DNA of 64,000 nt from Azolla caroliniana (lineage: Eukaryota; Plantae; Polypodiophyta). The DNA is taken from the NCBI GenBank assembly GCA_043228905.1, contig JBHGNT010000009.1, positions 18,104,001 to 18,168,000 on the forward strand, given 5' to 3'. Position 1 is the first letter of the stretch, and the number at the start of each line of letters is the position of its first letter. Below, in pieces: positions 26,571-63,595 of this stretch. Under the pieces are notes generated by a model, which searched no databases, was not told where the DNA came from, and saw nothing but the letters and a program-made list of their open reading frames with translations. The translations under genes were made by a program, and so were the position numbers.

Positions 26571-29500
26571 CCTAGGCAGTAATGAAGCTCTTTCTAGTTC
26601 GTCATCTTGATTTTGTCGGAGAGGAGGGACTTGACCTTGTTGATGTCAATTAGAGATTCACCACCAATGACCAGATCATCTATGTAGAGCATGACGATAA
26701 TCAGGCTTCCAAAATCGTTTCTTACGTAGAGGGAACTCGATGAAGATACTGAGTGATCTTCCAGTGCCAAGCACGCGGTGCTTACTTGAGTCCGTACAAT
26801 GGCTTCTTGAGACGACATACTGCTTTTGGACGGTTGCTAGATTCGAAGCCAGGTGGTTGTACTATGTACACCTCTTCTAATTTTCCTTGAAGAAAGGCGT
26901 TCTTGATATCCATCGGGTGGAGGTGCCACCCTTTTGCGCTACAAGTGCAATCATGGTTTAAACAATCTTCATCTCTGCCACCACGACAAAGGTTTCTTCA
27001 TAGTCGACTCCATGTGTTTGTGCATATCCTTTTGCTACGAGTCGGGCTTTATAGCAATTGATAGAGCCATCAACATTATGCTTCACCTTGAATATCCCTC
27101 TATAGACGTTTGCCTTCTTGTGAGGTGAGTGGAGGACGAGATCTCATGTCTTGTTCTTAGAGAGAGTTTGCATCTCGTCGTTCATCGCCTCAATTCATTG
27201 CAGATCTTTAGTGGCTTCGGTAAAGCTCTCCAGTTCACGAACAACTACCACCTTCATCACAAAGGCATAATGGTATGCCATGTAATCATTATAGCCGAAT
27301 CGACTGACTTGGTTCTTCTCTTGGGTGGAGCGACGACATTTTTCGTTTGTTGTGGTAATAGTTTTCTTCACTCTAGTGTCCTCATGATAGGCACATCAAA
27401 AGCACCAAACTCACTGTCAAGTGAGTCACTTGATTTGTTGCCGTCAGATTGTTTGTCTTCATATTCTGGCATTTCAGTCTTCCCTTTGCCCATCTTTGGA
27501 CTCGGCGAGATGTGTGTTGACCGGTCAGAAGAGCAAGGACAAGTGGGAAGGCGGAGTCGGATCGGATAATAGGAAGTAAATAATAGTATAATTATTATTC
27601 GGAGGGACGGATCCGGTACAGTTGTACCGATCCGGATCCGGACCGATTCGGATGCCGGTTGCCTAAGCGCACCGATTGTAACCTTGCCGGATGCCTATAA
27701 AAGTATCCAATGATTTGTAAAGGCTTGACAGAAGTAATACAATTATAATTATTGCGTGTTTATCTGTATCTTCGTATTGTTTTACCGTCTAGGCTTAATT
27801 GTAATCATCTTACGCGTGTAACCTAGCATCCAATCCTTACCACCCCTTTGGAGAAGTGTCGGATAGACACTTGTGTTGAGGCTAGTCCGGCCAGGCAGAC
27901 AACAATGTGCTTTGGTCGCTTTGAGGCTCTTGTGGTCTGCTCAATCTGGTGTAGAGAGACCTCTCCTTGAGTATTGACCTTAGTCGATCATCATCTTCAG
28001 TGTCATCAAGGTCGGCTGGAAAAGGTTCAGGAGGAGTTGGCTCAAGTTCGTATCATGATGCCGATTGGTAAAAGACTAGATCTCGGCCTACGCGAACCTT
28101 CAGAGTAGAAGGGTTGAAGCATTTGTACCCCTTTTTCTATAATGAGTATCCTACGAGGACACATTTATTCAACTTGAGGTCTAGCTTTTGCCGCTTTTCG
28201 TTGGGGATGTGCACGTATGCATTAGAGCCGAATATCCTTACATGGGATATATCTTACTTCTTTCCATAGTACTTCTCATGAGGGGTGACCTTGTGCATAT
28301 CGGATGTTGTACATCGGTTCATTAGGTAGACGGCAATGCATGCTGCTTCAGCCCACTATGACTTCGAAATATGCTTCTCGTTCATCATGGTCTATGCTAC
28401 TTCGAGGATGTGCTGATTTATGCATTTGGCCTCTCTATTTATTCCGATTTAGAGCCATCAACATTATGCTTCACCTTGAATATCCCTCTACAACCGATTG
28501 CCTTCTTGTGAGGTGAGTGGAGGACGAGATCCCATGTCTCATTCTTAGAGAGAGCTTGCATCTCCTCGTGCATCACCTCACTTCATCGCGGATCCCCAGT
28601 CGTTTGAGTAGCTCCCCACACATCTGAGTGGATTATGTCCAATAGGCCTTTGATCACATTTCGTTCTTTTGGAAATGGGTGCCGATGTTGTTTCCCGAAT
28701 CGGCAATCTTCACATACATCTTCAATCTCTTCCTCTTTGAAGGTCAGGAGCCCGATGACAATACCTTTTGATTGCATCCCCTTGAGCTTTTGGAGGTTGA
28801 TGTGGCCTATTCTCTTCTGCCACAACTCTATGTCCGTGTCGGCTTTGAGGCCCTTTACAAACATGGCCGATTTTACCTCGTTTGGCTTGAGGATAAACAT
28901 TTGGCCCTCCCTTCGACCACGAGCGGTGAGTCGGCCTTCCTTCTCAATGACGCAACTACCTTGGTTGAATCGGACTTACATGCCTTGCTCAGACCAAATT
29001 CTTCGTTATGGTCGGTACGTGCAAGACGTTTTTGATGCAAGTTTGCTCGTTTTCTTTCCCAAATGGGCCATTGCCGGATGTGTAGTGTCATCTCCGGTCT
29101 CGACATAGCCGGGTTGATCCGGCCTTCGTAGGTTTAAGAACCATTCTTGATGTGACATCATATGGTTTGATGCGCTAGAGTCGACAAACCATACACCTTC
29201 CGGATTAGAGGTGTTGGTCGGGCCAGAGGCTGACATAAAATTTGCACTATGTCTCATTACGAAAAATTCACCATAATCATTGTATTCAGAGTTGGTGACA
29301 TAATTGGTGAGTTGTCAGATTGTAGAAGCCTACTCGCGCTTCCTCTTTCGGCACTCTTCTTCGTGGTGGCCAATTTAACCACAATATCCACATTTGATTG
29401 AGTTGTTTTCTCGGCTTAGTCCTACATGGAAGCCCCCCCTTCTTTCGAATGTTTCTCTTGAGTTTACACCGTCTTGCCGGTCATGGGAGTTGTTTTCATA

Positions 29501-30045
29501 AGTTGAAGCTCGTCTGCCTCGTCCTTGGCCGAATTGGCCTCTTCTTGCATGGTCGCATCCTCTTCCTCCATCCGCGTGTGTAGAGCATGTGGCCTTCTGA
29601 GGCGTTGCTCCTTGTTCGTACACGATTTTCTTCAATCGACAACATTGATTAAAGATCCAAGAAAGAGGGAGGATTCTCTCTTGCTAGGGCGGTGATTCTC
29701 ATCGTACCGAACCATGGTGTGAGATTGTCTAGGCATATTTGCACCATCTTATCATTCTCCACATTGACGCTTATTGAGTCGAGTGAATCACAAAGCTCCT
29801 TGATCTTCGAGGTGTAGTTTTTGATGGACATGCCCCTTTGTTGGATGTTGTTCAACTCTTGGTGGATTTGAAGCTTTCTTGTAATTTTGTTGGCCGCAAA
29901 AATCGTCTGTAGATTCTCCCACGCTTCCTTCAACGTCTTGGCTTCTCAAATGTAACCGGGTGGGCTTAGTATATATGCTAAATCACAGGCTCTAATACCA
30001 TGTAAATAATTAGCTAGAGTAATTATGTTATGTGAAATAGATTAG
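26571..30045 (-). mobile_element. Degraded Copia (gag, CCHC, protease, GAG-pre-integrase, RT fragments) with a degenerate Met PBS
   Basis: LYIDDL, WFVDSSAS, LWQKRIGH and AWENL motifs. PBS TGGTATTAGAGC at 30000-29989. Confidence 0.85.
27515..27904 (+). mobile_element. Solo LTR related to the Athila-like LTR family
   Basis: TGTTG...CAACA termini with TSD ATGTG (27510-27514 and 27905-27909). Shares motifs ATCTTACGCGTGTAA and CCCTTTGG.GAAGTGTC with the reverse complement of 15645-16063. The empty site is visible at ~57150. Confidence 0.88.
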
Positions 30046-30832
30046 CGATGTGTATGTTAAAGAGGAAGTGAACCTTGTCAAGGACGAAATGACGTGGGTG
30101 GTCGACTCCGAAATGTCGTTTCACTTTACCCCCGACCGGAAATGCTTCTCATCATACACAACCGGAGACCACGATCTTGTGAAAATGGGAAATGAAGGAG
30201 CATGTCAAATCATCAACATAGGAGGCGTGTGTTTGATGGTATCACCCGGGTGCAAATTGGTATTGAAAGATGTGCAACACGTTCAAGAGGTCAAATTGAA
30301 TCTCATATCGGCCGGTCGGCTAGATGATGAAGGCTACATGAGTAGCTTATGGAACAACACTCTAAAATTTTGCAAGGGAATCCTGATTGTGGCCCGAGCT
30401 CGAAAGATAAACACATTGTATTTGATACATGCTCGATTATGCCGAGAGGAAGTAAATGTGGTAGTCGACACAACCGAGGAGTTATGGCACAAGAGGCTAT
30501 GCCATATGAGTGAGAAGGGGATGCAGAAGTTTGCCGAGGGTAACCTCATTTCGGAGGTGAAGAATGTGCAACTTGATAAGTGTACCGATTGCTTGGCCAG
30601 CAAACAGAACAAAGCCTCCTTTTGATCCATGCCCCCGAAGAGGAAGAAGATGTCATTGGAACTCGCGCATACGGATGTATGTTACGTAGATACAAAGTCT
30701 CATGTTGGTTCACAATATTTCGTGACCTTCATAGACGACTGTAGCCGAAAGTTGTGGGCTTCCATATTGAAGACCAAGGACCAGGTGTTGTCGGTCTTCA
30801 AGGAGTTCCAAGCGAGAGCCGTCAGAGAGACC

Positions 30833-31936
30833 CCTGTTAGCTATAGACCAATTTGCTCATATAATGGTTTATTATTTGAACAAACGTCTAAATGGCTTCA
30901 CCACCAACTCCTCCCTATACTTCTATGTCAAAAACAATATCTTAGGGACTCCCATTCCCTTGTCCAAACCTTAGAACAACTTATAACACCACCCAATAGC
31001 TTCATTTTTTCTTTTGATGTTGAATCACTCTACCCTAGCATCCCACCAAAACTAGGACTCTTAGCCCTAAAAAATATTATTTCCCCCCACTTTTCGAACC
31101 AAAAAACTAATTTGATTTATACCCTTAGCGCCCTCACTTTAGAATACCACTTCCTAAAATTCAACAACCAAATTTATCAACAGGTAAAAGGAACAGTCAT
31201 GGGCAGTAATTTTTCCGTTGTCTACGCATGTCTCTTCCTCTCATATCTAGAAAATTCCAATCCATCACCCCACCTTTTCTATTTCACTAGGTATATTGAT
31301 GATGCCTTTGGCGTTTGGACTGGTACTAAACCCCAACTTTTCGAATACCTAAACTTCTATAGTAACGCTACTCAAAACTCTATCAAACTAACCATACATA
31401 CTTCTTACACGAAACTACCATTTTTAGACTTGTGGATTAACTTAGATAATAATAGATTCACTTTTAATTGCTTTCAAAAAACACTTAATACTTATCAATA
31501 CATCCCTTATTCCTCCAATCACCCTCTCCATGTTAAAAATAGTTTCGTTTTGAATAAATTAAAAAGATATATGGTTAGAGAAAGCACATCCCTAGGTTAT
31601 TTGAATATGCAAAAGAAATTCTTTACGAGACTTAGGGCCCGAGGTTATCCCACGCATTTTATTTTAAAGAACTTTAGAAAACACCCTTACTCCCTTAGAC
31701 ACACTTTCCTCTTCAAAGAAAAAACTAAAAAAACCACCCCACCCACTATCTTTAAACTTAAATATACTCGCCATACCCCCACACTAATTATCAATGAAAG
31801 GCTCACTAGCCTACACTCTAGCCTACAATTAGATCCCCAACTACAACATATCCCTAAACCCATTATCTGTTGGACAAAATCCAAAAACCTCCACTCTTTT
31901 CTAGTCAAAACTAAAAACATCCTAGACCCCCCATAA
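30833..31936 (+). CDS. PLE reverse transcriptase (partial, uninterrupted frame; in frame with upstream Copia integrase)
   Basis: C-terminal ~367 codons of ORF 30629-31936. Confidence 0.85.
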   Translation, partial: PVSYRPICSYNGLLFEQTSKWLHHQLLPILLCQKQYLRDSHSLVQTLEQLITPPNSFIFSFDVESLYPSIPPKLGLLALKNIISPHFSNQKTNLIYTLSALTLEYHFLKFNNQIYQQVKGTVMGSNFSVVYACLFLSYLENSNPSPHLFYFTRYIDDAFGVWTGTKPQLFEYLNFYSNATQNSIKLTIHTSYTKLPFLDLWINLDNNRFTFNCFQKTLNTYQYIPYSSNHPLHVKNSFVLNKLKRYMVRESTSLGYLNMQKKFFTRLRARGYPTHFILKNFRKHPYSLRHTFLFKEKTKKTTPPTIFKLKYTRHTPTLIINERLTSLHSSLQLDPQLQHIPKPIICWTKSKNLHSFLVKTKNILDPP

Positions 31937-32149
31937 ACATATTTTCTCACCCTTCATCTATCCCCCTTCCTCATTCCTCTCTCCTTCCCCCTTACTACTA
32001 TTTACTAGTCACACACATCTCCTTTTTCCCCTTCCCTCCTATCTATAGTCCCCTATCATTCCCTCATATTTCACTAAAATCTCTCTCTCTCTCTCTCCCT
32101 CTCTCCCTCCCTTACTACTATTTTATATCTTCACTCATTCCTTCTCTCT

Positions 32150-32470
32150 CTCTCTCCCTTTTTTCTCCCTTCTCCCTTCTCCCTTCTCCCTTCCCCCTCC
32201 CCTATACCTCTCACAACCTTTTTATACACATTACACTAAAATCCATAGTTCTCTCTCTCTCTCCCCCTTTTTTCTCCCTTCTCCCTTCCCCCTCCCCTAT
32301 ACCTCTCACTACCTTTTTATACACATTTCACTAAAATCCATAGTTCTCTCTCTCTCTCTCCCCTCCCCTATACCTCTCACTACCTTTTTATACACATTTC
32401 ACTAAAATCCATAGTTCTCTCTCTCTCTCTCCCCTCCCCTATACCTCTCACTACCTTTTTATACACTCTC
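32150..32470. repeat. About four ~70-90-bp pyrimidine-rich tandem repeats in the PLE 3' region
   Basis: Repeated unit CTCCCCTATACCTCTCAC..CCTTTTTATACAC...AAAATCCATAGTT(CT)n. Confidence 0.85.
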
Positions 32471-32871
32471 TCTCTTCCCTCGTTTCCCTCAAACCTTCTC
32501 CCCACCACCTCTTACTAACTTCCTTCTTCATTTTCCTTCCTTTCCCTTCTTATTCCCTTCCTTAATTTTCACCTTCTCACCATCTTATGTTTACTTACTT
32601 ATAATTACATACCCTATCACTCATTCATTTCCCCTTATCACCATATCCCACTCACTCACCTGTCTTATCACCCTATCAATCTTCCTATCACCAACTCATT
32701 TCCCCCTTTATCACCACCTCCCCTATCATCAAGATCTTCCACCTTAAATCCTTACAACCTTCCATCTATTTACACTCTTATTACACCCCACTCACTATGA
32801 TTATACTTTCCCTCTTTCTCCTCCCTTCCCCATTCTCAACATCCTATATAAACCACCATTTGTATTTCCAT

Positions 32872-32926
32872 GACCTTTTGCACTGATGAGCTCCAAGCGA
32901 GCGAAACTAGTTTGCTGCATAAGGTC
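32872..32926 (+). ncRNA. Type I hammerhead ribozyme
   Basis: CTGATGA at 32883-89. Stem II GCTC/GAGC, then GAAA, minimal palindromic stem III (ACTAGT) and a GUU triplet. Stem I is GCA/TGC plus GACCTT/AAGGTC. Confidence 0.85.
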
Positions 32927-32955
32927 TTTCCTTTCATTTTAATGAAAATTTCTTG

Positions 32956-33005
<50 letters not shown>

Positions 33006-33837
33006 CTCTGTGCTTAGAATCTCTTCTTTTACTATTACATTATCTACTATATCACAAAGTCGCCCGCACTCCTTGCTACAACCAAATGGTTCACAATATT
33101 TCGTGACCTTCATAGACAACGTTAGCTGAAAGTTTTGGGCTTCCATATTGAAGACCAAGGACCAGGTGTTGTCAGTCTTCAAGGAGTTCCAAGCGAGAGC
33201 CCTTAGAGAGACCGGCCGGAAATTGAAAGCGGTTCGAGCGGATAATGGAGGTGGATATCAAGGGCGGTTCGAAGAGTACTGCCGGTCGAAGAGAATTCGG
33301 CTCGAATACTTCATGCCGAAGACTCTAGAGCTTAACAAGCGAGCCGAGAGAATGAACTGAACCACAACGTGGATTATAGAAAAAGGGAGGGACTTTGTGA
33401 TGGCTATTGGGGTTATGTTTTTTGCGAAAGAGAAGAGAAAAAAAAAAATTGAGGAAATTTTTTTGACTTAAAAAGCCCTAAGTGTGTAACTCGATTAAGT
33501 GCGCACTTTTCCCTTGCGTTCAAAGTGCACACTTAACCGAATGTCTATTGTAGTAGGTCCCATAAATGACTTGGGTCCTACAATAAGAAGCTAGTGCATT
33601 GATACTAACCACTCAATGTACCCACCGACTAAAACACTCTTAAATCCTTTTTTAGCCTTTCAACATGTCACATATTGGTAAACTCTTCATTACCTTTTGA
33701 TTGTTTGCAAGTGACATCCTATGGCATAAAATGTTCAAGAGGAACTGTCACAATCAATAACATATAATCGAAATCGTAGAGAGGGTCCAAATTTTACAAA
33801 GTTTACTATGATACTATTGAGTGTAGTTGGATATCAT

Positions 33838-41439: not shown

Positions 41440-41760
41440 CTAGTTCCACTCTTTTGGTGGAGAATGGAGTGGCATAAAGCACACTTTACAACCGAAGCAA
41501 GACTGAGCCACAACTGAGACTTTGTTTTGTCGTTAAAATACCGGAACTCTACATTGACATTAGAAGCGCAGAGAGGGCATGGTGGAAATGTCCAAAGGCC
41601 TATCTTGAAGGTGTCCAAAACCTTGAAATGGGTACTGGTCATTGGTGTGGTGAGACTCTTTTTAAACCCGCCTTCAGCATTTAGGAGGATCACATCCAAC
41701 TTTGCCTTTATCGCCTCAATGATCGTCGTGCCATTTGTCTGCTGTTGCAGCTCTTGTAGA
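41440..41760 (-). pseudogene. Dof-like zinc-finger exon fragment (left hairpin arm)
   Basis: ELQQQTNGT..LLNAEGG..TPMTST..CPLCASNVNVEFRYFN matches 53593-54441. Confidence 0.85.
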
Positions 41761-41764
41761 ACCT

Positions 41765-42020
41765 TGGAGGCAATGTTGGATACAATCCTCCTAAATGCCG
41801 AAGGCGGGTTAAAAAAAGAGGCAGACCACACCAATGACGACTACCCAACTCAAGGCTCTAGACACCTTCTTCAAGATGGGCCTTCCGACATCACCGCCAT
41901 GCCCTCTCTAGGCATCTAATGTCAATGTAGAATTCCAATATTTTAACAAAAGAACAAAGTCTCAGTTCGTTCAGCCTCACTTTGGGTTGCACAGTGTGGC
42001 TGCAACGTTTCTGGTCGACT
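41765..42020 (+). pseudogene. Dof-like zinc-finger exon fragment (right hairpin arm)
   Basis: LDTILLNAEGGLKK..FFKMGLP..ASNVNVEF..VQP, frameshifted. Confidence 0.85.
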
Positions 42021-51823: not shown

Positions 51824-54441
51824 ATGGTTGCTGCTAGCGTGGGCAGAGATACCCAAATCAGTCGTAATGATGAATTCGCAGGATTATTATTAGATGAGAA
51901 GGAGGTGGAAGACTTCCAACAGTTGGTGCTTCAATTGCTCCACCAAACAGAAGAAGATCAATCAATCAGAGCTGACTCCTTGGAGCTTCCCATCACTTCA
52001 ACCTCCGACGACAATGTGGACTTATATGCAGATGAGCTGGAGCAATTACTGCTCCTGCATCAGGAAAATCAAGAGATACCTGAACCTCTGACATCCGCAG
52101 GTCAATTAGGAGCTTCCAATATCAGTCGATGTGTAGGAGTAAAAAAGTAAACAAGTTTCTGAATCTTTTTGGGATGATAAAGCTGTAGAGGGTTCCGCAG
52201 AAGCTCCCGTCACATCTTTCTGCGACAATTATGCAGAGGAGCTGGTCATCATGCTTGATGAGGATCACGAAATACTTAAAGATATTCCTGAAGATTCTTC
52301 AGCTCCCAGCTCAGCAGGTGAATTGGGAACTTCTGCTTTCCCACTCTGTTAATATATTGCATGGACTCAATACCTAAATCATTTTCTAACTTATATCATG
52401 ACGCTGCAGCTGGTTATACAGCGCCTCCCAGGACACCATTTTCTGACAATTATGCAGAGGAGCGGGATCTTGATGAAGATCATGAAAGAATGGAATGGAG
52501 TTATGAATATCCTTCAGCTTGGACATCAGCAGGTGAATTACTAGCTTCTGCGCATAAGTACAACCTCAATCAATATGCACAAATGACTAAATAACCTCCT
52601 CCTAACTTATATGTAGATCATGAAGCTGCAGCAGGTTCTACAGAGCCTCCCATCATATCATTTTCAGAAATGTATGCAGAGGATCTGGAGCACCAATTAT
52701 TGCTCCTACTTGATACAGACCATGAAATAATCAAAGGGAGTTCTGAATATCCTCCGTCAACTACATTAGCAGGTGAATTAGTAGCTTTTGCTCATAATGG
52801 CAATGTCAATGTAGCGCATCAATGAATTGATTACATAACCATCTAACTTATATTAGATCGTAAAGCTGCAGCTGGTTCTACAGAGGCTCCCATGATACCA
52901 TTTGCTGACAATTTTGTAGAAGAGCTAGGGCATGATGAAGATCACGAAAGAATTGAATGGAATTATGAATATCCTCTAGCTCCGACATCAGCAGGTGAAT
53001 TGGTAGCTTCTGCGCATAAGCACAATACGAATCAATATGTGCAAATGACTAAATAACCTTCTAACTTATATTTAGATCATGAAGCTGCAGCAGGTTCTAT
53101 AGATCCTCCCATCACATCATTTTCAGATATGTATGCAGAGGATCTGGAGCAGCAATTACTGCTCCTTCTTGATGAAGATCATGAAATAATTGAAGGGAGC
53201 CCTGAATATCCCCCATCAACTACATCAGCAGGTGAATTAGTAGCTTCTGCTCATAACTAAAATGTCATTATAGTGGCATCCATAAATTGACTACATAACC
53301 GTCTAACTTATATTAGATCGTAAAGCTGCAGCAGGTTCTACAGATCCTCCCATCACATCATTTTCAGATATGTATGCAGAGGATATGGAGCAGCAATTAC
53401 TGCTCCTTCTTGATGAAGATCATGAAATAATCGAAGGGAGCCCTGAATATCCTCCATCAACTACATCAGCAGGTGAATTAGTAGCTTCTGCTCATAACTA
53501 AAATGTCATTATAGTGGCATCGATAAATTGACCACATAACCTTCTAACTTATATTAGATCGTAAAGCTGCAGCTGGTTCTACAGAGGCTCCAATGAATAA
53601 TGCCCAGGATGATTTTATACTTGCAGAGCTGCAGCAGCAGACAAATGGCACGGCCATCATTCAGGAGATGAAGGAAGAGTTGGATGCCATCCTGCTAAAT
53701 GCTGAAGGCGGCTTGAAAAAGCGGCTCATGACGCCAATGACCAGTACCCAATTCAAGGTTCTGGAGGCCTTCTTCAAGATGGGCCTGCCCACGTTACCAC
53801 TATGCCCTCATTGCGCGTCGAATGTCCAAGTAGAATTTCGATATTTTAACAACCGAACGAAGACTCGGTTGGTTCAGCCTCGCTTCAGCTGCAAGGTGTG
53901 CTTCACACCACCCCATTCTCCAGAGAAAGACTGGAACCAGCAAAAGCAGGAGGAGCATGTGAATAATAGGAAGAAGCTGGAGTTTACGCTTCACCAAGAG
54001 GAATTGGAAATGCTGGCTGGTGCCTGGGGAGGGCTTCATGCGCTGGTGCAACGTTTCTGGTCGATGCCACATGCCATCGAAGTTCTGGAGGCCAACAAAT
54101 TTATCCCGTGTAGCAGCCGCCACTGCAAGTCTGAGAGTCCAACCAAGTCATCGCCAAAGAGGAAGAGGAGATCGTGGGAGTCGAAGCAGGTCAATGATGG
54201 TGGTACTGCTCCTGAGAATGTGATGGATCGTCAATTGCCTCTTATGAGAGATCATCATGATGAGCATATGTTGTGGATGGAATCTTTTAATTCCATCATC
54301 GCAGCAGAGAGGCTAGGTAGTTCTGCTGCCTATACCTCCAGCACTACTAATCCTAACAATAATGATAGTGATTGGTATTATGATTACTATATGAGTTGGA
54401 ACAATCTAAACAATAACAACATTGCTGCTTTCACTTGGTAA
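51824..54441 (+). CDS. Divergent Dof-like zinc-finger protein with acidic exon repeats, ~647 aa; exons 51824-52100, 52189-52317, 52410-52532, 52632-52772, 52872-52994, 53091-53231, 53332-53472, 53573-54441
   Basis: All introns are GT-AG and phase 1, and most carry a CTAAC branch point. Internal exons are 129/123/141/123/141/141 nt and stop-free. The last exon has CPHC..FRYFNN..QPRFSCKVC. Confidence 0.78.
51960..53600 (+). repeat. ~220-240-bp exon+intron tandem array, about 7 units
   Basis: Recurrent AAGCTGCAG..GGTTCTACAGA and CATCAGCAGGTGAATT. Confidence 0.92.
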
Positions 54442-56384: not shown

Positions 56385-59300
56385 ATGCAACCACCATCAC
56401 ACCCCTCTATTCAGCCTCTGTGCCGGAAAGAGCGACAATCAGTTGCCTCTTACTGCTCCATGATATTGCTCTGTTGCTGATGGAGAAAACAAAATACGGA
56501 TGTCGATCGTCTAATGGTGCTATAACTGGCCAAGTCGTCATCTATGTACCCTTCGAGTCAAATTGGCTATAGAGAATGTCGTAGTCCATCGTTCCACTCA
56601 CATATCGTACCATTTGCTTACCACGACAAAGGTTTCTTCATAGTCGACTCCATGTGTTTGTGCATATGCTTTTGCTACGAGTCGGGCTTTATAGCGATTG
56701 ATAGAGCCATCAACATTATGCTTCACCTTGAATATCCCTCTACAACCGATTGCCTTCTTGTGAGGTGAGTGGAGGACGAGATCCCATGTCTCATTCTTAG
56801 AGAGAGCTTGCATCTCCTTGTTCATCGCCTCAATTCATCGCGGATCTTTAGTGGCTTCAGTAAAGCTCTCCGGTTCACGAACAACTACTACCTTCATCAT
56901 AAAGGCATAATGGTATGCCATGTAATCGTTATAGCCGAATCGACTAACTGGGTTCTTTTCTTGGGTGGAGCGACGAAGTTTTTCGTTTGTTGTGGCAATA
57001 GCTTTCTTCACTACACTGTCCTCATGATAGGCACATCAAAAGCACCAAACTCACTGTCGAGTGAGTCACTTGATTTATTGCCTTCATATTGTTTGTCTTC
57101 ATATTCTGGCATTTCGGTCTTCCCTTTGCCCATCTTTGGACTTGGCGAGATGTGCTTTGGTCGCTTTGAGGCTCTTGTGGTCTGCTCAATCTGATATGGA
57201 GAGACCTCTGCATCAGTATTGACCTTAGTCGATCATCATCTTCAGTGTCATGAAGGTCGACTGGAAAAGGTTCAGGAGGAATTGGTTCAGGTTCGTATCA
57301 TAATGCCGATTGGCCAAAGACTAGATCTCGGCCTACGCGAACCTTCAGAGTAGAGGGGTTGTTTACTCCTTTTTCTACAGTGAGTATCGTACGAGGACAC
57401 ATTTATTCAACTTGGGGTCTAGGGTTTGCCGTTTTTTGTTGGGGATGTGATGTATGCATTAGAGCCGAATATCCTTACATGGGATATATCTTACTTCTTT
57501 CCATAGTACTTCTCATGAGGGGTGACCTTGTGCACATCGGATGTTGTACATCGGTTCATTAGGTAGACGGCAGTGCATGCTGCTTCGGCCCACTATGACT
57601 TCGACATAGGCTTCTCGTTCATCATGGTCCGCGCTACTTCGAGGATGTGTTGTTTTATGCATTTGGCCTCTCCATTTATACCGATTTAGAGCCATTAGCA
57701 TTATGCTTCACCTTGAATATCCGTCTACAGCTGATTGCCTTCTTGTGAGGTGAGTGGAGGACAAGATCCCATGTTTAATTCTTAGAGAGAGCTTGCGTCT
57801 CCTCAATTCATTGCGGATCTTTAGTGGCTTCAGTAAAGGTCTCTGGTTCATGAACAACTACCACCTTCATCACAAAGGCATAATGGCATGCCATGTAATC
57901 GTTATAGCCGAATCGACTAACTATGTTCCTTTCTTGGGTGGAGCGAAGAAGTTTTTTATTTGTTGTGGCAATAGCTTTCTTCATTGCACTGTCCTCATGA
58001 TAGGCACATCAAAAGCACCAAACTCATTGTCGAGTGAGTCGCTTGATTTGTTGCCGTCAGATTGATCGTCTTCATATTTTGGCATTTCGGTCTTCCCTTT
58101 GCCCATCTTTGGACTCGGCGAAATGCGCTTTGGTTCCTTTGAGGCTTTTGTGGTCTACTCAATCTGGTGTAGAGAGACCTCTACTTGAGTATTGACCTTA
58201 GTCGATCATCATCTTCAGTGTCATCAAGGTCGGCTAGAAAAGGTTCAGGAGGAGTTGGCTCAAGTTCGTACCATGATGCTGATTGGCCAAAGACTATATC
58301 TCTGCCTACGCGAACCTTTTGAGTACACGGGTTGAAGCATTTGTACCCCTTTTTCTCTAGTGAGTATCCTACAAGGACACATTTCTTCAACTTGTAGTGT
58401 AGCTTTTGCCGCTTTTCGTTGGGGATGTGCACGTATGCATTAGAGCCGAATATCCTTACATGGGATAGATCCGACTTCTTTCCATAGTACTTCTCATGAA
58501 GGGTGACCTTGTGCACATAAGATGTTGTACATTCATTCATTAGGTAGACAACAATGCATGTTGCTTCGGCCCACTATGACTTCGACATATGCTTCTCGTT
58601 TATCATGGTCTGTGCTTTGAGGATGTGCCGATTTATGCAATTGGATTCTCCATTCTGTTGTGGTGTATGTCAACACTAAAATTCACATCGGATTCCTTCT
58701 TGTCGAATGTATGTCATGTATGCATCGAAGAAGTATTCCTTGTCTCCATCTGACTAAAGCCATCGTACATGCTAGCCGGTTGTTTTTTCGACTTCGCTTT
58801 TGAATTTTTGGAAGAGGTGTGTGAACACTTCGCTCTTCTACCTCATGGGAAAGATCCAGATGTGCATGGAGAAGTTGTCGATGAGAGTGATGTAATATCG
58901 ACAGTCGCCGAATGTAGTCGTTTGAGCAGGTCCCCGCACATATGAGTGGATTATGTCCAATACGCCTTTGATCACATTTCGTTCTTTTGGAAATGGGTGT
59001 TGATGTTGTTTGCCGAATTGGCAATCTTCACATACATCTTCAATCTCTTTCTCTTTGAAGGTCAGGAACCCGATGACAATACCTTTTGATTGCATCCCTT
59101 TGAGCTTTTGGAGGTTGATGTGGCCTATTCTCTTGTTCCACAACTCTATGTTTGTGTCGGCTTTGAGGCCCTTTACAAACATCGCCGATTTTACATCGTT
59201 TGGCTTGAGGATAAACATTCAGCCCTCCCTTCAACCACAAGCGGTGAGTCGGCCTTCCTTCTCAATGAAGCAACTACCTTGGTTGAATCGGACTTACATA

Positions 59301-60660
59301 CCTTACTCAGACCAATTTCTTCGTTCTGGTCGGTACGTGCAAGACGTTTTTGATGCAAGTTTACTCGCCTTCTTTCCCAAATGGGCCATTGCCGAATGTG
59401 TAGTTTCATCTCCGGTCTCGACATAGCCGAGTCGATCCGACTCTCATAGGTTTCAGAACCAATCTTGATGTGACATCATATGGTTTGATGCACTAGAGTC
59501 GACAAACCATACGCCTTCTGGATTAGAGGTGTTGTTCGGGCCGGAGGCCCACATAAAATTCACTCTATGTCTCTTTACGAAAAATTCACCATAATTATTG
59601 TATTTAGAGGAGTTGACATTATTGGTGAGTTGCTAGCTTGTAGAAGCCTACTCACGCTTCCTCTTTCGGCACTCTTCTTCGTGGTGGCTGATTTTACCAC
59701 AATATCCACAATCGATTGAGTTGTTTTCTCAGCTTAGTCCTACATGGAAGCCCCCCCTTCTTTCGAACGTTCCTCTTCAGTTTACACCGTCTTGCCGGTA
59801 ATGGGAGTTGTTTTCATAGGTTGAAGCTCGTCTTCCTCGTCCTTGGCCGAATTGGCCTCTTCTTGCATGGTCGTGTTCTCTTCCTCCATCCGCGTGTGTA
59901 GAGCATGTGGCCTTCTAAGGCGTTGCTCCTTGTTCGTACAGGATTTTCTTCAACCGACAACATTGATTGAAGATCCAAGAAAGAGGGAGGATTCTCTCTT
60001 GCTAGGACGATGGTTCTCATCGTACCGAACCATGGTGCGAGATTGTCTAGGCATATTTGCACCATCTTATCATCCTCCACATTGACGCTTATTGGGTCAA
60101 GTGAATCACAAAGCTCCTTGATCTTCAAGGTGTAGTTTGTGATGGACATGGCCCTTTGAAGCTTTCTTGTAATTTTGTTGGCCGTAAAAATCGTCTGTTG
60201 ATTCTTCCACGCTTCCTTCAACGTCTTGGCTTCTCAAATGTAGCCGAGCATGTGGTCATGGACACATGTCTCCAAGCAATACATTACTCGACTTGTTGCT
60301 TGCTCCCACCCATGTTGAGTTGTCAGCATCCTTAGGGTCACGTTTGTTTTCATGGGGTCCTTTGATATAGCTCCAATAACCTTGGCCGACAAGGTATTGG
60401 TGCATATATCAACTTCTTGTTAGGGAGAGAACTACCCATTTGAGTACTCATTATGTCGATGCACATTTACTTGTTGTCGTTTTTCTTCGTCCTTAGACAC
60501 GAACTATGTAGTGGCACTACTCTAGAGGATAGCCAAATTTGTCGTCGGTGTATCGAACACACAATCACTATGAGTGGGGTGGGCTTAGTATATATGCTAA
60601 ATCACATGCTCTAATAGCATGTAAATAATTAGCTAGAGTAATTATGTTATGTGAAATAGA
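56385..60660 (-). mobile_element. Degraded Copia, paralogue of 26977-30045, with an internal ~1-kb tandem duplication
   Basis: SWSSKRQ, KARLVAK and LWNKRIGH motifs. 56690-57680 is repeated at 57685-58650. Confidence 0.85.
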
Positions 60661-63595
60661 TTAGAGATGTGTATGTTAAAGAGGAATTGAACCTTGTCAA
60701 GGACGAAACGATGTGGGTGGTCGACTCCAAAATGTCATTTCACTTGACCCGTGACCGGAAATGCTTCTCATCATACACAACCGGAGACCACGGTCTTGTG
60801 AAAATGGGAAATGAAGGAGCACGTCAAATCATTAGCATAGGAGGCGTGTGTTTGATGGTATCACTCGGGTGCAGATTGGTATTGAAAAATGTGCAACACG
60901 TTCGAGAGGTCAAATTGAATCTCATATCGGCCGGTCGACTAGATGATGAAGGCTACATGAGTAGCTTATTGAACGACACTCTAAAATTCTTCAAGGGAAT
61001 CCTGATTGTGGCCCGAGCTCAGAAGACAAACACATTGTATTTGATGTATGCTCGATTATGCCGAGAGGAAGTAAATGTGGCAGTCGACACAACCGAGGAG
61101 TTGTGGCACAAGAGGCTATGCCATATGAGTGAGAAGGGGATGCAAAAGTTTGCCGAGGATAACCTCATTTCGGAGGTGAAGAATGTGCAACTTGATAAGT
61201 GTACCGATTGCTTGGCCAGCAAGCAAGTAGTACAGAGCCTCTTTTCGATCCATGCCCCCAAAGACGAAGAAGATGTCATTGGAACTCACGCATACAGATA
61301 CATGTTACGTAGATACAAAGTTTCATGTTCGGTCACAATAGTTTGTGACCGTTATAGACGACTGTAGCCGAAAGTTGTGGGCTTCCATATTGAAGACCAA
61401 GGACCAGGTGTTGTCGGTCTTCAAGGAGTTCCAAGCGAGAGCCGTCAGAGAGACCGGCCGGAAATTGAAAGCGGTTCGAGCGGATAATGGAGGTGGATAT
61501 CAAGGGCGATTCAAAGAGTACTGTCGTTCGAAGGGAATTCGGCTCGAATACTTCGTGCCGAAGACTCTAGAGCTTAACAAGCTAGCCTGAGAGAATGAAC
61601 CGGACCACAACGTGTATTATTGAAAAAGGGAGGGTCTTTGTAATGGCTATTGGGGCTATGTTTTTGCGAAAGAAAAGAAAAGGAAAAAATTTGACTTGAA
61701 AAGCCCTAAGTGCGCAGCTTGATTAAGTGCACACTTTTCCCTTGCGTTCAAAGTGTACCGAAAATTGCACTTCAATTCTTCGGAGGCTGAGAATTTGTCT
61801 TCTTCTCAAGCCTTGTGCATGCATGTATGCAAGAAGAATTTACTGGTTATCCCTCACTAAGCTAAATGACATCTGAAACCAAAGATGAGTTGCTCATGTG
61901 CTGGAATCGAGCGATGTTGTTCAATATATTCTCATGGAGTGGATATTAGAACTTGGGTTGTCTCCTGTGCTGGAATGTCAGTTTATCGACATTTTTCTAA
62001 AATAAAAGATGTTAATGTATGAGCTGGCTTTACACTTTACAATGTGAAATATTTGACATGGTTTTTTACAAGCATAAACTGCAGGACTATTCCATATGGG
62101 TTGAATGGGTGGTAAGTGGATGTGGAATCTATTGTTTGTTGGTGTGCTGGAGTGAAGCAGTGAGGAAATAAACTGTTTGCATTTTGGGTGCCCTTGTGCA
62201 GATCATTGAATGTGAATGATGATCTGGTTTTACACAACGAACCTATCAATTGACCATAGTGAAAGTTTCGTGTATATTGACCATAGTGAAAGTTTTAACC
62301 ACGCTGCCTATCAAAGTCATAAATTATCATGTATGGGTCCAGCAATGGCACATCTCAATGCTTGAATAAATTGACCTGTTCCTACATGTTTTATGTATAG
62401 CCTCGTTCTCTACCCTTAATTGCAATTTGGCATTGGAATCATGTGATTTGTACAGAGGGACATGCATATCTCCATGCCTCCATTACAGATATCCTTAATT
62501 GCAATTTGGCATCGGAATCATGTGATTTATATAGAGGGCCCGGGGCATGCATATCTCCATGCCTCCATTACAAATTGTATGTTGTCTTTCTTCTGTTGAA
62601 TGCATGTCTACATGCCTCCATTACAGAACACGTAATATAAATTGATTGAAATCATCCACGGTAAATAGAAATGGACAAAACATATTGCAATGATGCCTAC
62701 TTCACAGCCTTACAGCATGACATAAATCAGTTGGTAGCTTCCAGAGTAAAAACATATAAAGAGACAAATCAGAGGTGAATTAGGACTACATTGTTCAAAT
62801 TTGGATTCAAACAAGGCCTAATACACAGCCTTCCTATTGAGGCTTCTCTCCCTTTTGTATACATAATTAACACAAAAAAATGGATCAAAAAATACCATTG
62901 GTTTTGATAGTTATTTAGGGCAACACCATCAATTTTGCCTGTTATTTAATTTAATGCTAGTTTTACTAGCAATCCGTTAGGCTAAACTTGAATCAAAGAA
63001 TGATCCATCGGGAGCATATCGTCCACTTCCAGTAATTTATTATACAACGTTATTGTTCTTATTATTCAATTTTCTTAGCCTCTCTGATCTGCAAGGTGCG
63101 CCAGGCTTAATTTGTCCCTGCTATTATTTTGCAGTTAAAATTAGTGAAAACGAATAAAATAACACTCACACAAACTTCAATAGATTGAACATTTCGAACA
63201 CTTAGAAAGCTGAGTTTACCATGCACAAACCCAGAGCCAAATCAGCAGCAATAAAAGTATCCATTCCTGTTTCTCCACTCCTGTGACAAGTCATCACAGT
63301 TCCCCAACCAGCCTGCTTCAACATCTTTACCCCCTCTATGCTCTCAGATACTGAACCTATTTTGGTTCACCTACACATATAGCTTACATTTCAGTTATAA
63401 ATAGGAATCGAGAGCCCACTAAATTCTTGCGTATCTAGCAAAAAATTGCCAAACATTGAGCCAAAATCCACCAAATTCTTTGCAAATCCACACACACAGA
63501 GAATATAAGTAAACTTTGAAAGAAGTAATATAATAAGGGAAATGTGAAAAATAGAACTTGTTACAACACGGATGGAAGGTTTATAAAGTGTCTTT
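56620..63595 (+). repeat. Segmental duplication of ~26977-37140
   Basis: Collinear blocks (Copia -, Copia +, unique spacers, enolase exons), roughly 90-95% identical by eye. Confidence 0.88.
60661..61600 (+). mobile_element. Tnt1-like Copia fragment, paralogue of 30046-33365 without the PLE
   Basis: Near-identical translation, continuous through AVRETGRKLK. Confidence 0.88.

Follow-up and report, generated by a model that had tools for sequence, protein, structure and literature searches.

The 64,000-nucleotide stretch of the Azolla caroliniana genome analysed here (the window; contig JBHGNT010000009.1, G000:C9, positions 18,104,001 to 18,168,000) carries a 5'-truncated, endonuclease-less (EN-minus) Penelope-like element (PLE) of family A, which occupies positions 30830..33091 on the forward strand (the strand to which its parts and its flanking duplication are also assigned) and aligns end to end with other genomic copies. 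As full-length relatives show, the copy starts with the 3' part of ORF2 (30830..31936), which encodes the YIDD and thumb segments of a PLE reverse transcriptase (RT) up to the stop codon, with no GIY-YIG domain, and continues into a pyrimidine-rich 3' region with internal repeats (31937..32844). The end of the copy comprises a TATA box, TATATAAA (32845-32852), a hammerhead ribozyme motif, a (CT)n(CA)n microsatellite that varies from copy to copy (32958..33005) and a conserved CGCACTCCTTG motif followed by a 4-bp hairpin (33065..33091, with the hairpin at 33080-33091). The RT part is 97.6-98.1% identical to two compared family A copies and, with ORF1 lost, the window copy is non-autonomous. It sits in a copia-type element, 127 bp of which are duplicated on its two sides (30706..30832, 93.7% identical to 33087-33213, about 8 mismatches); TGGTT occurs both at the end of the element and in the target, and 60577-61758 holds homologous copia sequence free of a PLE. 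More broadly, positions 26980-30832 and 33091-33530 form a duplicated block with 56620-61758 (88-94% identical), the second copy of which lacks the PLE and provides an approximate empty site. Elsewhere in the window, 52174-54441 holds a degenerate tandem repeat of ~240 bp and, after it, an ORF that matches Dof and zf-Mss51 weakly, and 41512-41967 holds a long imperfect inverted repeat, MITE-like in appearance.

The hammerhead consists of the stem I 5' arm GACCTTTTGCA (32872-32882; distal GACCUU, proximal GCA), the catalytic core CTGATGA (CUGAUGA in RNA; 32883-32889), stem II GCTC/GAGC with the 5-nt loop CAAGC (32890-93 with 32899-902), GAAA (32903-06), which closes the core block 32883..32906, and the stem I 3' arm (UGC, a bulge and AAGGUC; 32913-32926). 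Between GAAA and the 3' arm, the 10-nt palindrome AAACTAGTTT (32904-32913) encloses a 2-bp stem III (A32906-U32911 and C32907-G32910) and the GUU triplet (32910-12), with cleavage predicted between 32912 and 32913. Thus, the complete core, stem II, bulged stem I and 2-bp stem III within a palindrome, which an initial annotation had described from the letters of this stretch, are all in place. A full descriptor (core, stem II, stem III, NUH and a 3-bp stem I) matches the window once and none of 200 block shuffles; the loose core-only pattern alone is not significant (1 match in the window vs 2.9 expected). The Rfam scan proposed in the initial annotation yielded no match in the window at the gathering score for HH9 or Hammerhead_1, the best sub-threshold match being to Hammerhead_HH9 (22.2 bits vs 52 needed, E 0.0035). 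An alternative register of stem I, in which UGC 32913-15 would be an insertion, was ruled out, given that the core-adjacent GCA/UGC is conserved and covaries.

Intact relatives of the element are 4.7-6.1-kb tandem units with ORF1 of ~850 aa, an overlapping RT frame of ~660 aa and then the repeat, and include seamless 5.58-kb tandem units with intact ribozymes; as is typical of PLEs, tandem or partial-tandem units form pseudo-LTRs that carry the hammerhead. The RT motifs are of the PLE type, namely ADKN (DK(G/N)), GTAMG, YIDD and the thumb, and the CxC motif that precedes the RT in PLE-X elements is absent from the RT alignment. The closest named RT relatives, in a search limited to proteins of 367-1169 aa, are uncharacterised proteins of Cryptomeria (40%) and Selaginella (37%). 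The RT search produced 146 matches spread over all 22 large contigs of the 523-Mb host genome, whose telomeric arrays consist of CCCTAAA repeats. For ORF1, we found no useful Pfam family and no Atlas match. Intact units stop after the thumb, with no GIY-YIG endonuclease, and among 9 genomic candidates for this domain the only match is an intron-containing host-type gene, presumably SLX1. Judged by this domain content, the element is an endonuclease-less two-ORF Penelope-like retrotransposon. Copy alignment, RT homologues and the intact tandem relatives agree in placing the hammerhead in the terminal repeat of a PLE, as the initial annotation had surmised, here one of the EN-minus, two-ORF type. 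A slippery A-AAA-AAC and a hairpin-forming stretch are kept at the ORF1/ORF2 overlap in six families (L034:4268-4340; homologues in L031, L113, L114, L116, L119 and L120); the site and its downstream complementary stretch likely constitute a -1 frameshift signal. Derivatives are also present: a 2521-bp unit (L229; G000:C1:21.148-21.151 Mb) with the ribozyme and the 3' motif, in which the sole frame, of 96 codons, starts like ORF1, is likely a non-autonomous PLE derivative, and in families D and H truncated modules of TATA box, ribozyme and motif recur in tandem at intervals of 1.2-3.2 kb, the intervening DNA being captured copia or other host sequence (L107-L108 at G000:C20:13.309-13.316 Mb, L109, L111 and L280).

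The hammerhead is widespread in the host genome, where one genome-wide pattern finds at least 279 copies vs 0 control matches, and another finds 124 vs 1. We compared 22 representatives, comprising 15 families sorted by eye from the genome itself and 7 from metagenome contigs (the hammerhead is present in 42 of 67 such contigs). In all 22, stem III lies within a 10-nt palindrome and U17 is kept; GUU, which the initial annotation had regarded as an uncommon triplet, is thus the rule in this clade, a single genomic copy carrying GUA (L173). GUU is among the triplets that hammerheads can cleave. The palindrome, another element of the initial annotation, holds throughout as a palindrome while its sequence changes between families (ACUAGU, ACAUGU, AUGCAU, ACCGGU). 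Stems I-III covary, as the annotation's check for covariation among copies had called for: in 14 aligned representatives, pairing is complete (140/140 cells) and compensatory double changes affect 5 of 10 pairs, the 100% pairing being partly built in because the rows came from scripts demanding stem pairing. The innermost palindrome pair, which was not demanded by this selection, varies among UA, AU, CG and GC, and distal helix I swaps GACC/GGUC for GGUC/GACC between families. The catalytic core is conserved across elements whose RTs are 39-100% identical. More distant PLE RTs (L372-L374; 27-28% identity) are also accompanied by hammerheads; their palindrome is ACGCGU, position 17 is A, C or U and, exclusively in these three, A9 is followed by an extra nucleotide.

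The motif displays the features of a type I hammerhead, namely CUGANGA, GAAA, NUH and helices I-III, open at helix I. By the definitions in PMC4209133, minimal hammerheads have an absent or reduced helix III/loop 3, whereas all 22 representatives have 2 bp and a 2-nt palindromic loop; helix II likewise departs from the minimal class, measuring 4-5 bp, and A9 is not followed by an extra nucleotide. Conversely, the 4-bp helix II and the 1-2-bp helix III with a palindromic loop are those of the canonical type I class, of which the 6-bp helix I and the conserved tertiary-contact loop nucleotides are lacking: in most families the proximal helix I spans 3-5 bp and is followed by a bulge or mismatch, and loop II is 4 to 9 nt long and unconserved, with UUCG among its variants and no conserved tertiary nucleotides. 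Thus, on comparative sequence evidence, the motif is a real, conserved type I hammerhead, and the label 'minimal' used in the initial annotation does not apply, since helices II and III are canonical and nothing extra follows A9. Because a 2-bp helix III is combined with a conserved palindrome, activity likely depends on two copies paired via the palindrome. In predicted folds, the window motif taken alone favours a competing hairpin, the hammerhead geometry being 5.4 kcal/mol costlier (5.1-5.4 kcal/mol across family A), and the family A double hammerhead lies 16.8-17.3 kcal/mol above the free fold; the cost of the hammerhead is only 1.6-2.0 kcal/mol in 11 of 17 representatives. The ribozyme of family A, to which the window copy belongs, is therefore predicted to misfold.

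If the ribozyme cuts the RNA from which copies are made, 5' ends of genomic copies could mark the cut. We examined the first 100 listed of the 308 sites of the 3' motif, picked regardless of their 5' ends, of which 93 had enough upstream sequence and 88 remained after removal of repeats. Most of these distinct contexts (60/88) extend through the ribozyme into upstream sequence; a further 20 end downstream of the predicted cut, and the remaining 8 end at -2..+1 relative to it. The interval -120..+130 contains 26 counted junctions, and the 8 at -2..+1 correspond to a binomial probability of 5e-9 and a local-density Poisson probability of 1e-8; a count of 7/26 gives 1e-7. Three rows were left out of the tally (L275, at the locus edge; L262 and L272, with a poor family reference), and five offsets were adjusted by eye (L169, L243, L288 and L292, with L111 kept as printed). 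None of the sampled 26 falls inside the catalytic core. Five further cut-site junctions, encountered outside the sample through targeted or incidental inspection, are at L219, L220, L237 (twice) and L242. No clear cut-site case includes G16.2. In families D and E, patterns with a preceding non-T base revealed no cut-site starts, junctions after T being missed by such patterns, and family H gave 2 matches, one of them due to chance; L238 was discarded as a chance match. No full-length copy starting at the cut was found, and L220, a candidate for one, proved to be a composite in which a stub adjoins a truncated long copy. ORF1-bearing copies with an upstream repeat reach past the ribozyme and hence exceed unit length. 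The cut that the initial annotation predicted after 32912 is thus matched by 5' junctions of the family at that very bond, and these junctions likely record self-cutting of the RNA in living cells; given that 60/88 copies read through the ribozyme, cutting is likely partial.

The same pile-up could, in principle, reflect stalling of the RT, rather than cleavage, at the 10-bp duplex that paired ribozymes form through the palindrome. The last base of this duplex is the first base past the cut, so that the stall and cut positions differ by no more than 1 nt; the RT may indeed stall at stem I, as four junctions at +8..+12 suggest; and five cut-site junctions have one or two T in common with the uncut sequence, which is compatible with stalling. 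The extra T, however, may be explained by untemplated addition of A, and the palindromic duplex is worth about -8.4 kcal/mol, no more than stem I, which the RT would already have passed. Stalling would also be expected to leave a smear into the core, which is not seen, nor is there a junction in the GC-rich stem II, and it sits poorly with a catalytic core retained over the whole range of RT divergence. We therefore consider stalling a highly improbable source of the junctions and cleavage the likely one.

The TATA box lies upstream of the ribozyme at a largely constant distance. Its first T is 27 nt before G32872, close to the spacing of about 25 nt before stem I given in the initial annotation, and 38 nt before C3. 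TATAWAWR is found in 18 of the 22 representatives at -36 to -53 from C3 (16 at -36..-42, 2 at -52/-53), at least three of the other four carry one-mismatch variants, and the 300-nt upstream stretches of the representatives contain one other separate match. Transcription starts ~30 nt downstream of a TATA box, which would place the start in the window at ~32873-32880, within the stem I 5' arm. A class of 3-4 junctions, spread over 8 nt, lies 28-36 nt after the TATA box: L169, L230 and L181 at -10, -8 and -4 from C3, with one more, L227, at -3. Among the sampled junctions, the cut class (8) outnumbers this start-site class (3). L074, L222 and L217 lack 18 nt between the box and stem I; the box consequently sits at -20 and the distal 5' arm is missing. 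We regard the TATA box as the likely promoter of the element. That the sequence is no promoter, with read-through transcription from outside and the motif inherited or serving as a 3' processing signal, is improbable: the spacing does extend to -53 in distant families, and the tested promoter of the Drosophila virilis Penelope is TATA-less (PMC2377424), but the box is conserved where its flanks diverge, and the start-site junctions fall at the distance expected of a promoter.

The CGCACTCCTTG motif with its hairpin has 308 genomic matches vs 0 control matches, and the hairpin stem stays paired while its loop varies. In family A, the motif is present in 21 of 22 compared copies, 16 of which (16/21) terminate 6-20 nt beyond the hairpin, and the window copy terminates at the hairpin itself. 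Across families, the motif and hairpin lie ~120-860 nt beyond the predicted cut. This arrangement suggests that they likely serve as the start signal for reverse transcription; as the motif is downstream of the ribozyme, the RT must traverse the ribozyme to produce long copies. A poly(A) site as the cause of the fixed 3' end was dropped, the motif and hairpin being common to all families, unlike an AATAA-like sequence. Families B and H, unlike A, have degenerate CCCTAAA tracts between the ribozyme and the 3' motif.

Flanking duplications are variable: there are none in several copies, 20 bp at L269, ~67 bp at L219 and 127 bp in the window. At L118:9180-9520 (G000:C3:1.695 Mb), CCCTAAA repeats form a head-to-head junction, with a short RT fragment in between, of two 5'-truncated elements that belong to different families. 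The variable duplications and this head-to-head junction fit insertion by priming at existing DNA breaks, the mode we infer for these elements. The copies are mostly interstitial, departing in this respect from the telomeric location of EN-minus PLEs: 91 of the first 100 listed hammerheads are >250 kb from contig ends, and the window copy is ~4.3 Mb from its contig end. Nine of the same 100 lie within 250 kb of an end vs 2% expected, so that end-proximal copies are enriched. At the tip of G000:C7 (L112:3700-3720), a family B array broken in ORF1 is capped by telomeric repeats; this copy, the one at a true tip, points tipward, opposite to the orientation expected of telomere-primed insertion. 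By eye, insertions at L012, L029, L220 and L259 abut what we take to be a 5S-like repeat, and those at L002 and L181 lie near presumably tRNA-like sequences.

Taken together, our preferred reading, to which we assign a probability of about 0.75, is that the type I hammerhead in the terminal repeat of this EN-minus PLE likely cuts after U32912 in vivo and that the upstream TATA box is likely the promoter. RNA polymerase II would start ~28-35 nt past the TATA box, within the stem I 5' arm, and the transcript would span the 5' UTR, ORF1, the RT frame (likely via -1 frameshifting) and the next repeat. Cleavage at GUU is slower. The ribozyme would be slow and would likely need two palindrome-paired copies, so that only part of the RNA is cut. 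The RT would start where copies are seen to terminate, a few bases past the motif and hairpin. The predicted cut is where a minority of copies begin, most copies extending across it; run-off of the RT on cut RNA would produce the stubs, and passage over uncut or re-ligated RNA the long copies and tandem arrays. Without an endonuclease, the cDNA would be primed at existing DNA breaks, mostly in chromosome interiors. Against this reading stand the predicted misfolding in family A and the Poseidon element PAc, whose ribozyme mutants inserted normally in vitro and for which no RNA reads ended at the cut (PMC11167929). The initial annotation's overall interpretation, a promoter and self-cleaving module of the terminal repeat, is thus partly supported.

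Other fates of the cut RNA can be envisaged. Cutting might be a side road, serving RNA turnover, decapping or translation control, with transposition proceeding via uncut RNA only. The read-through of the ribozyme in 60/88 copies agrees with this, as do two published systems: the ribozyme is dispensable for insertion of PAc in vitro (PMC11167929), and canonical hammerheads are missing from Naiad and most Chlamys elements, which spread all the same (PMC8557442). Against it, the core, the palindrome and U17 are kept in 22/22 representatives, and their retention even in non-coding derivative families indicates a cis role in propagation; we hold the side road to be possible, with the odds somewhat against it. 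It is also conceivable, if rather unlikely, that two ribozymes excise a unit-length RNA that is circularised, whereupon an internal start and rolling of the RT would generate long copies and arrays, the stubs being unligated linear monomers. Such circles were proposed in PMC4209133 and would account for the seamless 5.58-kb units and for the ORF1-bearing copies longer than one unit. The same pattern, however, would result from uncut multimeric array transcripts or from template jumps, which are seen at L237, L220 and L230. A more elaborate extension of the preferred reading strikes us as doubtful as a whole. It holds that the promoter tunes the ribozyme: with the start inside stem I, a unit transcript would begin with a ribozyme copy that lacks the distal 5' arm, the double hammerhead would then be cut preferentially at the 5' copy, sparing the 3' copy that the RT must read, and U17 would act as a brake, while patching of breaks would spread the element over whole chromosomes and mobilise non-coding satellites bearing the TATA box and ribozyme. 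Trimming of the first copy to -8 is predicted to weaken the helix closing the 3' cut site by 5-11.5 kcal/mol.

Canonical type I hammerheads in plant EN-minus elements are already known, having been reported in Selaginella (PMC4209133). The closest parallel, the Coprina elements Sm1/Sm2, telomere-associated EN-minus PLEs of Selaginella moellendorffii (PMC13159263), are also from a plant and carry a type I hammerhead in the pseudo-LTR (PMC4209133), and a Selaginella protein is among the closest named RT matches. Their telomere association contrasts with the distance of most listed Azolla hammerheads from contig ends, and, compared with the Selaginella ribozyme as described, that of Azolla has a 4-9-nt loop II devoid of conserved tertiary nucleotides, in a two-ORF element. 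Athena/Terminon elements share the two ORFs with a frameshift signal, the tandem arrays and a hammerhead near the 3' end (PMC8557442; PMC6431247), as well as 5' truncations capped by telomeric repeats, of which Azolla offers one case (L118). Their 3' end, as described, consists of telomeric repeats right after the ribozyme, whereas the Azolla copies have the distant motif and hairpin, no telomeric repeats in family A and mostly interstitial locations. In PAc of Anolis carolinensis, internal RT initiation near a stem-loop past the hammerhead has been shown and copies end beyond the ribozyme, as in Azolla, but PAc encodes a GIY-YIG endonuclease in a single ORF, and no RNA ends were found at its cut, unlike the genomic junctions that mark the cut here (PMC11167929). 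EN-minus PLE-X elements of Chara and Selaginella resemble the Azolla family in the plant lineage, the missing endonuclease, the canonical hammerheads and, in Chara, the genome-wide distribution; their proteins, by the same account, have the CxC motif and an N-terminal CxCX1-8C extension (PMC8557442), the former lacking before the Azolla RT. Metazoan non-LTR retrozymes, like families H2 and D, are non-coding hammerhead tandem units likely moved by a PLE RT (PMC7761336; bioRxiv 10.64898/2026.07.22.740005), whereas the Azolla units reach ~2.5 kb, carry the TATA box and RT motif and reside in a plant.

The present analysis contributes a likely fossil trace of cutting, the conservation of U17 and of the TATA geometry, and a spread that is mostly interstitial; our literature search on hammerhead with TATA box in PLE pseudo-LTRs, and on cut-site junctions of truncated insertions, found no precedent, and older key studies may already describe some of these features. 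EN-minus PLEs have been described as generally confined to chromosome ends, whereas the Azolla families are mostly interstitial. The genome of this fern likely preserves, to the exact base, the traces of cutting in a plant element, alongside a putative promoter and a putative start signal for reverse transcription; with all three present in young families that retain intact tandem units, the order of start, cut and copy is directly testable.
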